Part shown: positions 42,766 through 51,760 of the stretch, piece after piece
How the letters are laid out: each line of letters begins with the position of its first letter
Numbering within the stretch: the first letter of the stretch is position 1
Source: a marine bacterium AO1-C
GTDB taxonomy: Bacteria > Bacteroidota > Bacteroidia > Cytophagales > Microscillaceae
DNA length: 64,000 nt
Assembly (NCBI GenBank): GCA_001890965.1
Contig: MLAY01000008.1
Location: forward strand, 360,341 to 424,340
Reading direction: 5' to 3'
Program-made: the position numbers and the translations under genes
Notes under the pieces: model-generated
Database searches by the model: none
What the model was told of the DNA's origin: nothing
The model's input: the letters and a program-made list of their open reading frames with translations, nothing else

Positions 42766-43752
42766 CTAATTACCCTGATCAAGCCACAGCCCATCTTTAA
42801 TATAGCCAATTTGCCCAAAAGCGAGGTAATTAAAGAATAAAGGCAACTCGAAGAAATGAGGCAAGCCATAATGATAAACCCGGGTAATGAATTGCACTTT
42901 TTTCCCTTCAAGTTGATCAGATGTAAGGCTGTTGGGTAATTGGTAAATGTAAAGCAAGGTTTTGCGATTTACTTTTAGCTTCCCTTTCTTTTTTACTTTT
43001 CCAGAAAATGCAACCAATTGTCCCTGATGTTGACGAAACTGCTCGATAGTTTTACAAACAGGAAATAATCGTTGTAGTAAGGTAGCTGATGGGGGTTGAT
43101 TAGCTTGAGTAAATTTGACAATAGCCATTCCAGGTTGTTTTTTACCTTGTTTGAGAGCATTTGTCGAAGGCATATTAAAAAGAAGCCAAGGATTTTTGTG
43201 ATTGGCCTGAAATACTACTTTTTGTTCATCCCTTACTGAAATTAACCCATAAACTACCACCCACTGATTTAGATTTGTTTCAATATCCTTTTGAGAGTGG
43301 CAAGCAGGTATTGCTTGTATTTGGGCCACCTTTGTTACGAATGGATGTACGCGAATCAATTTTTCAGGGTCTTTGACCAATGGCTGTTTACTTGCATTGA
43401 GAAATGCTGTTTCAGGCAATGGTTCATTACTAAAACTGGCCAACTGAAAGTCAGTGTTGTTTAATTTTACTATTCCTTTTACCAGTATAAAGGTCGTATT
43501 TATTGGTTTTCCTCCAAAAAAAGCATCATTCCCTAAAAAAATCCACTCATTACCCTCTAGTAACAAAATATAAGGGTGATGAGGCAACTGATGATGACGC
43601 GCTAATTCTCCAAAAATTAGGATTTGTTTACCTGCATTTGCTTTCACTTGCTCTATAGAGGTACAAATAGGGGCATTTTCCTGAGAAAAGCCCTTGTTTG
43701 GTAGTGTTAGCAATAAGCCAATAATAATTAGTATGAGTAGCGTATTGCGCAT
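42766..43752 (-). CDS. secreted hypothetical protein with three internal Cys-containing repeats
   Basis: Signal peptide MRNTLLILIIIGLLLTLPNKGFSQ; repeats ICTSIEQVKANAGKQILIFGEL / IPACHSQKDIETNLNQWVVVYGLI / VCKTIEQFRQHQGQLVAFSGKV; starts 2 bp after the preceding DUF4157 gene. Confidence 0.5.
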   Translation of the reverse strand: MRNTLLILIIIGLLLTLPNKGFSQENAPICTSIEQVKANAGKQILIFGELARHHQLPHHPYILLLEGNEWIFLGNDAFFGGKPINTTFILVKGIVKLNNTDFQLASFSNEPLPETAFLNASKQPLVKDPEKLIRVHPFVTKVAQIQAIPACHSQKDIETNLNQWVVVYGLISVRDEQKVVFQANHKNPWLLFNMPSTNALKQGKKQPGMAIVKFTQANQPPSATLLQRLFPVCKTIEQFRQHQGQLVAFSGKVKKKGKLKVNRKTLLYIYQLPNSLTSDQLEGKKVQFITRVYHYGLPHFFELPLFFNYLAFGQIGYIKDGLWLDQGN

Positions 43753-43754
43753 AA

Positions 43755-45416
43755 CTATTTCTTATCTACAATTGTACTAATCTCTGGATCGCCTACAGTT
43801 TCAAGCTGGCGTTCATGGAATGATTCTCCTTTACCGGTTCCATACATAGAGAAGTACCATAATTTATGGTCGGCAAGGCCTTCTAAAGCCATGTAATCTC
43901 CCTGATCGTTGCTTTGCATAATATTCGTTGCAAAATGATAATTATAGCCAGTTTCGCCAGATTGGGTATTATTGGCCTTGGCTTCTTTTTCGTTTACATA
44001 ACGATTGGCATCTACCATAGTAACTCCCTGACCCAAATCGGGGCGAGCAAAAGAGCCTAATCCATATTCCTTATCTACTTGGGCTCGGGCAGTGCCTGAT
44101 AAACTTAAATAATCATTGTAAGCTTTTTCTTCGTCGCTGTAAGCTTTTGCGGGGTATTTGTCCTGCATTATTCTTAGAATGTAATCCCTGATAGTTTTTG
44201 TGGCATCCAGGGTATCTACTGTAATAGAGCCATCCTTGCTTTTGTATACCCGACGAGCACCTCCTGCCCCACTTTGAATACACCCCATAATCAAACGATT
44301 GGCATTTCCACAATCTCTTAGTTTGAGCTTGTCAAATCCTCCATATTTTCTTTCTTCAGTGCTTGATTCATTCGCCATATTTTGGTCTTTGCCCCCTTCT
44401 GTATGCACTGCTTTTATTTTTTTGAAACTCCCTTTGCTTGGATTAGATTCATTCGTAAGAGGAACATTTCCTACTACCAGATCATTGGCTTCGGTCACTA
44501 ATTTCACATAAGATCCTTTAGCAGCAAGCACTTTATTGGCCTTAGTGATGAGGCTTTGGTCAGCCCAGGCTTGTTTTGAATAAGTCCCTAAGCCTTCTAC
44601 CGCCATTTTACCATCATTAGATACCATCAAGGTTTTACGTTTGGGATGACGCCAGCCTTCTTTTTGTCTTTTCAGTTTATTGGGTATCTTCCCTTTAGCT
44701 TCCCGTTTTTTATATTTTGCCTCAAATTTTTCAGTCTGCTTATCATACTTTTGTTTCATCTTTTCGCTGTAAGGATCAGCATCTTTCTGATTTGCCATGG
44801 TTGTGTTATAATCCTCTTCTGACAAATGTCTGAGTTGATCACGCTTGTTGTACATCACATAACGTTGTACTGGTGCGCTTGATGTTTGCCCTCCAGTGTT
44901 GGCTTGCAATGGCTTAGATGAAGTAAGGTCTCCTTTACTGGCTTTATCACCAATATCGTCTGCCTCTTTCTCCAGTTTTGGATCGCTATTAATACCTACC
45001 CCATTATTGGCTTGAAAGTCGGCTTGTACCCGCCCTTGTTTTTGTTGAGCTACATGGGTGAGTTCGTGCCCAAGGTGTTGTTCTTTGCCAGGGGCTAAAT
45101 GCACCTCATTTCCTTGCGCAGTAGCTTCGGCCTTTAACTGAGCAGGCTTGCCAGAATTATAGTGAACTCTAGCATCCGACACATCAGTGCCCATGAGTTG
45201 ACTTACATTTTCTTTGATTTGATATTCGCCAAGTTGGTTTTCTGTCCCCATCAAACGCTTTGTATTGCGCTGTAAAGGCTTTTGTTTAGCTTTATGTCGT
45301 GCTTGCTTCCCTTGTTTTGATTGGACAGGCTTTTGCCTGGATTTAATTGTGGATGTTTGTCGTTGAACAGGTGCTTGATTTGTTGTATCTGTGGATAATT
45401 GCTGAAAAGATTGCAT
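43755..45416 (-). CDS. DUF4157-domain protein (HExxH-like HELTHVAQQ), paralog G
   Basis: No signal peptide; basic Q/K-rich N-terminus; …VHYNSGKPAQLKAEATAQGNEVHLAPGKEQHLGHELTHVAQQKQGRVQ…; conserved C-terminal ~220 aa shared with the next gene (…GYNYHFATNIMQS…LEGLADH.LWYFSMYG…SFHERQ…IVDKK). Start set at MQSFQQ by alignment with paralog F. Confidence 0.65.
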   Translation of the reverse strand: MQSFQQLSTDTTNQAPVQRQTSTIKSRQKPVQSKQGKQARHKAKQKPLQRNTKRLMGTENQLGEYQIKENVSQLMGTDVSDARVHYNSGKPAQLKAEATAQGNEVHLAPGKEQHLGHELTHVAQQKQGRVQADFQANNGVGINSDPKLEKEADDIGDKASKGDLTSSKPLQANTGGQTSSAPVQRYVMYNKRDQLRHLSEEDYNTTMANQKDADPYSEKMKQKYDKQTEKFEAKYKKREAKGKIPNKLKRQKEGWRHPKRKTLMVSNDGKMAVEGLGTYSKQAWADQSLITKANKVLAAKGSYVKLVTEANDLVVGNVPLTNESNPSKGSFKKIKAVHTEGGKDQNMANESSTEERKYGGFDKLKLRDCGNANRLIMGCIQSGAGGARRVYKSKDGSITVDTLDATKTIRDYILRIMQDKYPAKAYSDEEKAYNDYLSLSGTARAQVDKEYGLGSFARPDLGQGVTMVDANRYVNEKEAKANNTQSGETGYNYHFATNIMQSNDQGDYMALEGLADHKLWYFSMYGTGKGESFHERQLETVGDPEISTIVDKK

Positions 45417-45579
45417 GATGTTCTCTATAAGTTTTTGATCTCCTGATTTTACAAAAAAGATCACTTAAATAAAAGGCTATTATCTAAATAACCTTAGGCG
45501 TTTTTAATAAAATGACAAATCAATCATCTATATATCAAGTCAATCTATTTATTATATTTCAGATAAACGCGATTGTTCA

Positions 45580-50335: not shown

Positions 50336-50626
50336 CTAATCCAAGTCTTGAATGCACAAACGCCAAAAGAAAGCCATGAGGGCAAACAATCCGCTCATTA
50401 CCCAAATGAAGGGGCGATGTAGGTAGTACTCAAACTTGATTCCTAATACTAAGAATCCAGCAGATAATACCAAGGTGATGGGAACAATGACCATCATTGC
50501 AAAGGTGATGATACGGGCCAATGAATAGGCCCTATTAGAAGAGGGTTGGGTGATATGATTCATAATTTTTAAAGTTTGATCTATTGACTTATTTCCTACT
50601 ATTATATACTGTTTGTTATACCTCAA
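50336..50626 (-). CDS. small 2-TM membrane protein B
   Basis: 96 aa; 9 bp downstream of A. Confidence 0.4.
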   Translation of the reverse strand: MRYNKQYIIVGNKSIDQTLKIMNHITQPSSNRAYSLARIITFAMMVIVPITLVLSAGFLVLGIKFEYYLHRPFIWVMSGLFALMAFFWRLCIQDLD

Positions 50627-50635
50627 GGTTTCAAA

Positions 50636-51760
50636 TTATTGAACAGATTCGCTCTCTGTTGCATTGGCTCTTAGCTTGAAAAAAATCCTATATAAACGTT
50701 TTTCTTGCTTGAGAATTTGTGCGAAGAATATTGGAAAAATAAACATAAAGATAAAAGCTATAATGTTTACAATGTTATTATAATTACTCAAGCTTTCAGC
50801 TTCCTTAAAATAGTCGGTACTGCTTCCTCCCATATGCATATTATCAACCATTTTCGATAATAAGATTCTGCTTTTTACCCAAACATAAATCACACTTAGT
50901 TGAAAAAACACATTGACTGCCCACCAAATATTAATCAAAGCCGCACCTCGCACCACCTGCTCTGGTACAACATCTTTGATTCTTAATTGTATTTTTTTCC
51001 ATATTTCTTTCACAATCAAATAAGGGTAAATCCACCAGGTAATAGGTATAAAAAACGACCAACCTACTTGACGATCAGAGAACTTCATGTTGCACCCAAG
51101 CCTTCTTAAATTGGTATAAGCCCGAGTTGCCCAAAGTACGTACAAGATGAGTTCGGCTAAAATTACCCCACAGAAAATAAACAATCCTGCGCCAACTATA
51201 TAGTAGGCATTGAGAAGCGCATTCAGATTAAAACCACTGCTATTTTTTAGATACAAAACCCCACCAAACACCAGCACTACAAATAAACATATAATTCCAA
51301 TTTTGGCCCAAGAAAGTATCAAGGTAACTTTCCCTATATCCGCGTTATCTTTGAGGCCTCCTTCAAAACTATTGTACAAATTAGCGTTAGAAGAAGTATT
51401 CATTCCAGGGCGATGTTGTACTTTTTCCTGAATTTGTACTCTGGCTATTTTCAATTCTTGCCTTATTTGTAGCAAATCTTCGGTACTCCATTGCCCTTCT
51501 TTGTTGGTAAGGGTGCCCAGAAGTTTGTTATTTTTGATAGACCACAATTCAATTTTAATTACGTCTTCTATTTGGATAAACTTGACTTGAGTAGTTTCAA
51601 AGCGAAGAAAGCCTCCTCCTTGCGCCTTTTGCAGGTTAATCTTTTGGGTAGAAGGGTCAATGCTAATCTCAAAAACGGGTTCGGGGGTATCGGCAGAGGA
51701 AGGGGAAAATTTGCTTTCCAATGCTACATATACGGGATTGGCACGGGTGGATTCGTTCAT
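50636..51760 (-). CDS. membrane protein A: N-terminal shared ~85-aa domain + DUF4328-like multi-TM domain
   Basis: N-term …VFEISIDPSTQKINLQKAQGGGFLRFETTQVKFI…GTLTNKEGQWSTEDLLQI; C-terminal TMs with …YTNLRRLG…GWSFFIPITWWIYPYLIVKEIW, resembling the DUF4328 signature as I remember it. Confidence 0.5.
   Translation of the reverse strand: MNESTRANPVYVALESKFSPSSADTPEPVFEISIDPSTQKINLQKAQGGGFLRFETTQVKFIQIEDVIKIELWSIKNNKLLGTLTNKEGQWSTEDLLQIRQELKIARVQIQEKVQHRPGMNTSSNANLYNSFEGGLKDNADIGKVTLILSWAKIGIICLFVVLVFGGVLYLKNSSGFNLNALLNAYYIVGAGLFIFCGVILAELILYVLWATRAYTNLRRLGCNMKFSDRQVGWSFFIPITWWIYPYLIVKEIWKKIQLRIKDVVPEQVVRGAALINIWWAVNVFFQLSVIYVWVKSRILLSKMVDNMHMGGSSTDYFKEAESLSNYNNIVNIIAFIFMFIFPIFFAQILKQEKRLYRIFFKLRANATESESVQ

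Follow-up and report, generated by a model that had tools for sequence, protein, structure and literature searches.

Eight co-directional genes, here denoted A to H, occupy positions 42766-51760 on the minus strand of the window, the 64-kb stretch of contig MLAY01000008.1 from the marine bacterium AO1-C (Microscillaceae). These genes probably comprise two units that came to be adjacent by chance in one lineage of the Microscillaceae: an orphan cassette of effectors and partner that belongs to an extracellular contractile injection system (eCIS), represented by genes F to H, and a set of inner-membrane proteins encoded by genes A to E. On the evidence of sequence comparison, F and G are members of a large, unnamed family of predicted toxins that are accompanied by a partner gene immediately downstream. 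All eight open reading frames (ORFs) are genuine; the source of the locus is identified by E and H, which are 100% identical to the AO1-C proteins BKI52_24365 and BKI52_24350, respectively, and G matches protein P0009 (BKI52_24355) in length and position. The start of G is probably the ATG at 45416, as in the NCBI protein. Exact look-ups of F, G and a paralog from Microscilla marina returned no entry. The features of the F-H cassette are as follows.

Gene F, 45580..47088, minus strand: 502 amino acids (aa); disordered basic N-terminal domain (NTD), DUF4157, linker and C-terminal domain (CTD).
F NTD, residues 1-62, nucleotides 46903-47088, minus strand: disordered, basic.
F DUF4157 domain, residues ~63-130, nucleotides 46699-46902, minus strand.
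F CTD, residues 205-502, nucleotides 45583-46476, minus strand.
F family-invariant residues, minus strand: Cys334 at 46087-46089, His445 at 45754-45756, Glu461 at 45706-45708.
Gene G, 43755..45416, minus strand: 553 aa from the ATG at 45416 (possible alternative start, the GTG at 45464); paralog of F, likewise built of three parts.
Gene H, 42766..43752, minus strand: 328 aa; signal peptide and three divergent repeats, with starts at residues 28, 149 and 231.

The Pfam family PF13699 (DUF4157, now eCIS_core) is matched by F with 41.3 bits and by G with 43.1 bits (E 4.9e-11), against a cutoff of 22. Both proteins carry HLGHELTHVAQQ, which contains the HExxH zincin motif, intact and invariant, and the small zincin-like fold of PF13699 is present as well. 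F and G are 51% identical over their full length. A hydropathy scan detected no hydrophobic segment in either protein and, therefore, there is apparently no signal peptide; the Pfam scan of F and G detected no C-terminal domain of the type IX secretion system (T9SS). The claim of an earlier sequence-only reading of this DNA, that F and G are paralogous DUF4157 proteins lacking signal peptides, is thus borne out in all its parts. In an AlphaFold2 model of F, built from a 22-sequence alignment (mean pLDDT 63), residues 1-62 are disordered (pLDDT ~30), residues ~63-130 form the folded DUF4157 domain (pLDDT 72-86), and residues ~212-502 form a mostly folded C-terminal domain with a low-confidence segment at 315-350. 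The first 65 residues are rich in K, Q and P, with a net charge of +13 in F (13 K and 11 Q) and +10 in G. Over its N-terminal ~160 residues, F shares 57-78% identity with the products of 12 further, distinct DUF4157 loci of Microscillaceae in which the F CTD is missing, and the C-terminal domains of such paralogs vary, including calpain, M91, Tox-MPTase3, EndoU and Endonuclease_NS_2 (precomputed Pfam annotations from the homolog search). Such a combination of a shared N-terminus and varied C-termini is the pattern of polymorphic toxins, here with a putative system-specific leader.

Several additional features of the DUF4157 proteins were observed. A charged linker of ~45 aa between DUF4157 and the CTD is present in G and in most of the orthologs and is missing from F (residues ~190-205; window 46450-46560, minus strand), as well as from the metagenomic ortholog P0002 (501 aa). 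The AT skew is strongly negative (-0.25 and -0.17) at window 44001-48000, over the F and G genes, which we attribute to the minus-strand coding of K/Q/E/N-rich proteins. Loci L007 and L011 (coral metagenome and metagenome-assembled genome (MAG) UBA11690) contain arrays of three or four DUF4157 genes in a row (740-790 aa); the proteins of these arrays share the F N-terminus at 78% identity and possess other C-terminal domains. No eCIS gene was detected within the fetched flanks of these two arrays, and the P0020 locus, inspected for eCIS context, contained only an array of DUF4157 genes.

The CTDs of F and G, ~290 aa in length, have no match in Pfam, NCBIfam or the PDB sequences (a PDB profile search yielded chance-level matches only); an NCBIfam scan of all eight proteins of the locus returned nothing meaningful, and F and G match neither Transglut_prok and other transglutaminase models nor LysM. 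Nevertheless, the domain is widespread: when 1.84 billion representative sequences were searched with a profile built from 15 CTDs, 1,398 proteins were retrieved at E<=1e-3, which is a lower bound on the number of CTD clusters at 50% identity, and 1,031 at E<=1e-10. A scan of viral contigs for the CTD found none. PF13699 is present in 58 of 96 diverse members of the CTD family, and the only other Pfam family represented is SH3_3, in two. This composition fits the published survey in which 983 of 1,130 predicted DUF4157 toxins had no other annotated domain (PMC11297309).

Among 144 diverse CTD family members, Cys334, His445, Glu461 and Gly475 (F numbering) are invariant, and Asp333 and Asp456 are kept in at least 90%. 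The family-wide invariant residues lie in the CTD, which suggests that this domain is the catalytic one. The order of these residues, Cys, His, acidic, is the same as in papain-like, CHAP, NlpC-P60 and transglutaminase cysteine hydrolases; transglutaminase-like domains typically use a Cys-His-Asp triad. In the F model, Cys334 lies just before a helix, and His445 and Asp456/Glu461 are on adjacent strands. When the model was compared with the PDB using Foldseek, the best match was a CHAP domain (E 0.14), followed by phytochelatin synthase, none of the matches being significant; the weak fold matches of the CTD include TseH and CHAP domains. From the model and the residue pattern, we infer that the CTD is a putative papain/CHAP/transglutaminase-type cysteine hydrolase or transferase.

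A scan of metagenomes with the conserved C-terminal stretch of the CTD yielded 43 loci spanning GC contents from 28% to 75%. In all 40 loci with enough downstream DNA, the toxin gene is followed by a partner ORF of 95-211 aa located -4 to +43 nt from the toxin stop, including 14 loci with a 4-nt overlap between the two genes. The partners form a single family (blastp E 1e-54 to 1e-7 against the 137-aa example from locus L006), for which a Pfam scan gave only a sub-threshold match to DUF5818. Their predicted localization is mixed: about half have lipoprotein-type N-termini, and ~14 of 33 (~40%) have no signal.

In the window, the position of the partner is occupied by H. The hydropathy scan of H revealed an N-terminal hydrophobic, signal-like segment, which is followed by three occurrences of the motif P-x-C-x-S/T...G-x-x-V-x-x-x-G, at residues 28, 149 and 231; the partner-family hidden Markov model (HMM) matches the start of each repeat. 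The sequence-only reading had described H as a secreted triple-repeat protein; the export signal is supported, whereas the triple repeat is visible at the motif level only, given that BLAST detects repeats 1 and 3 alone (E 5.6e-4). Nor is H best viewed as an unrelated secreted protein; a reading as the toxins' cognate partner is preferable. Homologs of H are located 3' of an F-family gene in the coral metagenome (L001), in UBA11690 (L004), in a more distant relative (L005) and in Microscilla marina (L003), and the H family has 6 members among 5.8 billion proteins. H is probably the cognate partner of G and its CTD, and an immunity protein, considering that it starts 2 bp after G, is conserved beside F-family genes in five contexts, has an export signal and evolves fast. 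One DUF4157 cargo protein was reported to be toxic only when directed to the periplasm (PMC12210884). In the Cytophagaceae MAG bin.60 (L009; L010:1-2222), a G-like gene is preceded by the tail of an H-like gene, which suggests the order F, H', G, in which each toxin would have its own partner.

The link to injection machinery comes from the relatives of the CTD. In metagenomic locus L033, the gene order is a CIS tape-measure protein (PF19268 CIS_TMP, E 5.8e-83), an AAA ATPase, a DUF4157-CTD protein and its partner overlapping by 4 nt, the pair consisting of a 506-aa toxin and a 115-aa partner. In L034, the order is AAA, a DUF4157/M91-like gene, a DUF4157-CTD gene, a lipoprotein partner and another DUF4157 gene. 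Both layouts are typical of the 3' ends of eCIS operons (Geller 2021). In Algoriphagus machipongonensis, also of the Cytophagales, Cgo1 and Cgo2, which consist of a disordered NTD, DUF4157 and a CTD, fill the tube of the eCIS AlgoCIS (PMC8894135); loading of AlgoCIS cargo needs the NTD, whereas DUF4157 is dispensable (bioRxiv 10.64898/2026.05.27.728243). With this Cgo1/Cgo2-like architecture and with CTD relatives that follow eCIS tape-measure and AAA genes, the assignment of F and G to DUF4157 proteins of the eCIS-effector type stands. So does the statement that the machinery is not in the window: among the families listed, no eCIS structural family was found in the 38 other ORFs of the 64 kb. 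M. marina has two eCIS loci, AAWS01000001 and AAWS01000055 (Geller 2021 supplements), and its F-H pair is on a different contig, AAWS01000021; thus, orphan cargo copies far from the machinery do occur in an eCIS-bearing relative. The apparent eCIS operon end in L034 (L034:5891-17205) contains DUF4157 genes of 402 aa (weak M91), 534 aa (F-type CTD) and 1118 aa, and then a subtilase with a P-domain.

The scheme that we favor, under which F to H are an orphan eCIS cassette and A to E are separate inner-membrane proteins, can be outlined as follows. F and G would be made in the cytoplasm, without a Sec signal, and would have a loading sequence in their N-terminal ~60 residues, which are disordered, basic and K/Q-rich. 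The eCIS AAA+ ATPase would then thread them into the tube lumen of particles whose genes lie elsewhere in the genome, a step that we infer. The zincin-like DUF4157 domain would be the usual accessory module of eCIS cargo, and the ~290-aa CTD the toxic part, a putative cysteine enzyme acting via Cys334, His445 and Glu461 (Asp456 is nearly invariant as well). After export to the periplasm, H, which carries three diverged copies of a small partner domain, would bind and block the CTD delivered by sibling cells. A, C, D and E are predicted to present a cytoplasmic PH-like domain beside transmembrane (TM) segments, in a layout resembling that of YdbS/YdbT; A-E would be dispensable for F-H in general and, in this lineage, might be co-regulated with them via the GATCAAA box described below.

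Several observations weigh against this scheme. An eCIS in AO1-C is suggested by its relatives only, and F and G, unlike Cgo1 and Cgo2, are not located in or beside an eCIS operon. The toxicity, the loading and the neutralization in the F/G/H system are all predictions. The homology between H and the partner family covers ~25 residues per repeat, with low bit scores, and F lacks a partner gene of its own. Furthermore, mixed localization signals are unusual for a single immunity family, and could instead reflect a chaperone or adaptor function.

The latter two points lead to the strongest of the competing explanations, namely, that H and the small partners serve the effectors as accessory factors (for instance, as chaperone or adaptor, as activator, or as a subunit delivered along with them) rather than as immunity proteins. 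The lipoprotein-like N-termini in about half of the partners next to the complete lack of a signal in ~40%, and the retention of F without its own partner, are readily accommodated by an accessory role; moreover, chaperone-like roles around DUF4157 effectors have been discussed by Danov et al. 2024 (PMC11297309), and many eCIS toxins have no immunity genes (Geller 2021). We nevertheless regard this explanation as somewhat unlikely, albeit one to be taken seriously. The tight downstream coupling, often with a 4-nt overlap, in 40 of the 40 loci is the classic toxin-immunity layout, and H evolves fast along with F and G. Also, with a Sec-type signal on H and with F and G cytoplasmic, the proteins would not meet before export, which counts against an accessory function.

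The second unit, upstream of F-H, consists of five genes.

Gene A, 50636..51760, minus strand: 374 aa; N-terminal shared PH-like domain and DUF4328 multi-TM domain.
A shared PH-like domain, residues ~29-115, nucleotides 51416-51676, minus strand: from the shared-domain alignment.
A DUF4328 domain, residues 191-306, nucleotides 50843-51190, minus strand: PF14219, E 7e-15.
Gene B, 50336..50563, minus strand: 75 aa from the ATG at 50563; small 2-TM protein without the shared domain.
Gene C, 49506..50045, minus strand: 179 aa; one hydrophobic segment and one copy of the shared PH-like domain.
Gene D, 48486..49469, minus strand: 327 aa; two TM hairpins, the first followed by the shared PH-like domain and the other by a second, beta-rich domain with a C-terminal helix.
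Gene E, 47436..48473, minus strand: 345 aa; architecture as in D.

The hydropathy scan shows TM segments in all five proteins, A to E. A matches the Pfam family DUF4328 (PF14219) with 55.4 bits (cutoff 27.2), and its orthologs are annotated likewise, in agreement with the DUF4328-like multi-TM domain that had been recognized from the sequence. A domain of ~85 aa, aligned without gaps at 28-34% identity, is common to A, C, D and E, so that the proposal of one domain shared by all the membrane proteins holds for these four and fails for B. D and E, which carry a second domain each, are 28-30% identical over their full length. These two had been regarded as YdbT-like bPH proteins; the layout alone resembles that of YdbS/YdbT, whereas no Pfam bPH model matches D, E or 10 of their relatives (12 members), even at E<=10. 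A PDB search with the D/E profile gave a chance-level match only (E 0.59). An AlphaFold2 model of E, built from 8 sequences (mean pLDDT 53.7), consists of a TM hairpin, a beta-rich domain with a C-terminal helix, a second TM hairpin and a second such domain; the PH-like assignment is a tentative one, from fold matches of this low-confidence model (pLDDT ~54).

The arrangement of the genes does not suggest a single operon. As noticed in the sequence-only reading, the eight ORFs lie on the same strand with short gaps between C and D (36 bp), D and E (12 bp), and G and H (2 bp). The 9-bp spacing between A and B, which had been proposed as well, depends on an unlikely TTG start at 50626: the start of B is most likely the ATG at 50563, which places B 72 bp after A and is favored by the calling of the orthologs at 75 aa and by an in-frame TGA in the extension of the L001 gene. 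The remaining gaps are long, 290 bp between B and C, 347 bp between E and F, and 115-163 bp between F and G; several transcription units are therefore likely, and a single operon is unlikely. Scans for sigma-70 promoters and terminators produced chance-level results only, and the Bacteroidetes -7 motif TAnnTTTG is not present in the relevant gaps, save for one distant site.

Comparison with related genomes separates the two units. The order A-B-D-E-F-G-H, without C, is found in the coral metagenome (L001/L002), in UBA11690 (L004/L008) and in the Cytophagaceae MAG (L009/L010), and the nearest relatives of the proteins of the locus are from Microscillaceae. The syntenic loci share the flanking genes, an Ada/AraC-type regulator and a GNAT gene on one side, and MR_MLE, DPBB_1 and DUF1611 on the other. 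At this site, the more distant L005 carries a pair of D/E-like genes, a single F/G gene and H. In contrast, M. marina (L003) has F and H only, at a different chromosomal site, and no A-E. Apart from the syntenic copies L008 and L009, no homologs of A, C, D or E were found nearby in the DUF4157 and CTD-family loci examined, including the 12 other distinct Microscillaceae DUF4157 loci and 11 large metagenomic loci. D/E-like genes are beside F-H in every genome examined that has them; a search of 5.8 billion proteins found 7 members of the E family, which all seem to come from orthologous loci, syntenic in each case examined. The pairing of DUF4157 proteins with membrane genes, which had been put forward as a candidate module, is accordingly not supported as a general one; the conserved unit is F/G with H, found in 40 of the 40 loci, and the few genomes with synteny indicate that the DUF4157/membrane combination is lineage-specific. 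Evolutionary rates vary across the locus: compared with the UBA11690 orthologs, the identity is 87-91% for the flanking genes, 87% for E, 82% for B, 79% for A, 76% for D, 66% for H and 60% for F/G. For A, the identity is 79% in L004 and 53% in L001, and for the D orthologs, 76-77%. On gene content and order, A-E are lineage-specific neighbors of F-H, with at most a putative local regulatory tie.

Two further observations concern this region. C is present only in this genome, whereas L001, L004 and L009 run from B straight to D; the best paralogs of C are 27-34% identical to it and, therefore, C is no recent duplicate. The Ada/AraC-type regulator, which contains HTH_18 and a methyltransferase DNA-binding domain, is divergent from A (window 51761-51920), a position that is kept in L001, L004 and L005.

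The possible regulatory tie between the units is a short box upstream of five of the genes.

AGATCAAAAACTTAT box, 47095..47109, minus strand: 6 nt before the start codon of F.
Identical AGATCAAAAACTTAT box, 45427..45441, minus strand: 10 nt before the ATG of G.
GATCAAACTTAT box, 49475..49486, minus strand: 5 nt before the start codon of D.
TATCAAA box, 51772..51778, minus strand: 18 nt upstream of the start of A; kept upstream of A in L001, L004 and L009.
GATCAAA box, 50575..50581, minus strand: 18 nt upstream of the ATG of B, within a conserved non-coding stretch.

The pattern GATCAAN{0,2}ACTTAT occurs 3 times in the 64 kb, against 0.05 expected, and all three occurrences are just upstream of the starts of D, F and G. 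The relaxed form [GT]ATCA[AG]A precedes A, B, D, F and G by 17-24 nt but only one of the 38 other genes of the window. The box is kept upstream of the same genes in L001 and L004 and is not present in L005 or M. marina. Controls for the choice of the motif gave p ~0.005-0.02 with the position constraint and 0.13-0.17 without it. On these figures, the shared box is suggestive of co-regulation of A, B and D with F and G. A role of GATCAAA as a general leader of DUF4157 genes was ruled out, the box being found upstream of 2 of 23 paralogs (20 distinct upstream regions). The stretch between A and B (50564-50635, minus strand), which holds a GATCAAA box, seems to be more conserved in DNA than the adjoining coding sequence.

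The box is one of the reasons to consider that A-E might act together with F, G and H, either as a route of export or release for the signal-less F and G or as a membrane sensor or regulator. Apart from its occurrence upstream of A, B, D, F and G but only one of the other window genes, and its conservation in L001 and L004, this possibility draws on the adjacency and common direction of the eight genes, on the D/E-like genes located directly upstream of F-H in L001, L004/L008, L005 and L009, and on the PH-like folds beside TM hairpins as in YdbS/YdbT, the homologs of which in the enterocin DD14 system, DdE and DdF, are required for the export of that bacteriocin (PMC8657885). However, all the co-occurrences of A-E with F-H are orthologous and syntenic and thus amount to a single evolutionary event, whereas F-H stands without A-E in M. 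marina, and no A-E genes accompany the 11 metagenomic or the 12 other Microscillaceae DUF4157 loci. The long intergenic gaps at B/C, E/F and F/G, the housekeeping-like rate of E (87%) as opposed to the fast evolution of F, G and H, the loss of significance of the box (p 0.13-0.17) once the position constraint is lifted together with its absence from L005, and the lack of Pfam bPH membership for D and E all point the same way, and we consider joint action of the two units unlikely. Its more specific form, in which A-E would be a dedicated apparatus for F and G, providing eCIS-independent export or release, or a membrane checkpoint that couples effector production to the state of the envelope, with co-regulation through the GATCAAA box, appears distinctly improbable. 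Such an apparatus would have a parallel in YdbS/YdbT-like proteins that export leaderless bacteriocins, and A-E, if they form one, would be the first described system of membrane partners for DUF4157 effectors.

Weaker still is the possibility that F and G are not injection cargo but rather cellular or otherwise secreted enzymes (via T9SS, T6SSiii or lysis), in which metallopeptidase activity would reside in DUF4157 and the CTD would have a regulatory or substrate-binding role: the lack of an eCIS gene in the window and the intact, invariant HExxH would be compatible with it, but it is made very unlikely by the absence of a Sec signal, a hydrophobic segment or a Pfam T9SS C-terminal domain in F and G, by CTD-family members directly following eCIS tape-measure and AAA genes, by an architecture identical to that of proven AlgoCIS cargo, by the family-wide location of the invariant residues in the CTD, and by the toxicity of Cgo1 being independent of its DUF4157 metalloprotease motif (PMC8894135). 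An anti-phage defense function was ruled out: none of the eight proteins had a PADLOC match (E<=0.1), and there is no phage context.

Elsewhere in the window, four consecutive ORFs on the plus strand (591-4244) encode paralogous proteins of 315, 296, 273 and 200 aa, the latter three being 54%, 32% and 31% identical to the first, which has no Pfam match at E<=1e-4.

In the literature, DUF4157 is present in about half of the predicted eCIS toxins, mostly without any other annotated domain, and one such large family is defined here. With a candidate Cys/His/Glu triad and an obligatory partner, this family presents a concrete toxin/antitoxin candidate and a marker by which orphan eCIS cargo could be found at a distance from its machinery. 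Should the CTD prove to be a new cysteine hydrolase toxin, engineered injection systems would gain a payload class. H, triplicated and exported, would be an unusual form of the partner, and the PH-like membrane family and the upstream box are minor leads on the regulation of orphan cargo.

Among the known systems, YdbS/YdbT provide the closest counterpart to the membrane proteins; their homologs DdE and DdF are needed to export the leaderless bacteriocin enterocin DD14 (PMC8657885). The likeness, as seen in the model, consists of a TM hairpin followed by a small domain that appears to be a beta-sandwich plus helix, with one such unit in C and two in D and E, encoded side by side. Unlike YdbS/YdbT, the 12 members analyzed show no bPH match, A fuses the domain to DUF4328, and the family is confined to few Microscillaceae.

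For the predicted toxins, three comparisons are relevant. EAT14 of Chitinophaga rupis, in which DUF4157 is combined with LysM and a transglutaminase-like domain, is, like F and G, a DUF4157 effector from Bacteroidota, and is toxic to both Escherichia coli and yeast (PMC11297309); F and G differ in having neither a transglutaminase nor a LysM match. Polymorphic toxin-immunity pairs, for instance those of type VI secretion (T6SS) in which NlpC/P60 or CHAP-type amidase effectors have periplasmic immunity proteins (Tse1/Tsi1, TseH), share with F and G the combination of a delivery module with a swappable C-terminal toxin, the adjoining and often overlapping downstream gene, the fast divergence of the pair, the export signal, seen here in H, and the Cys-His-acid pattern. 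Unlike in those pairs, the delivery module of F and G is of the DUF4157/eCIS type instead of PAAR, VgrG or Rhs, the CTD lies outside the NlpC/P60 and CHAP families of Pfam, the localization of the partners is mixed, and H is triplicated.

The closest resemblance is to Cgo1 and Cgo2 of AlgoCIS, which likewise consist of a disordered NTD, DUF4157 and a variable C-terminal effector, with 498 aa in Cgo1 compared with 502 aa in F (PMC8894135; PMC8213781); the N-terminal region is common to paralogs of one genome, and the CTD relatives follow an eCIS AAA gene. F and G differ from Cgo1 and Cgo2 in being located among housekeeping genes with no eCIS gene nearby, in being predicted cargo known from the genes alone, in the unannotated CTD family with its invariant Cys, His and Glu, and in the downstream partner, which has not been described for Cgo1/2. 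Set beside these systems, the locus is a useful definition of a family within a recognizable class of effectors and not a new kind of system.

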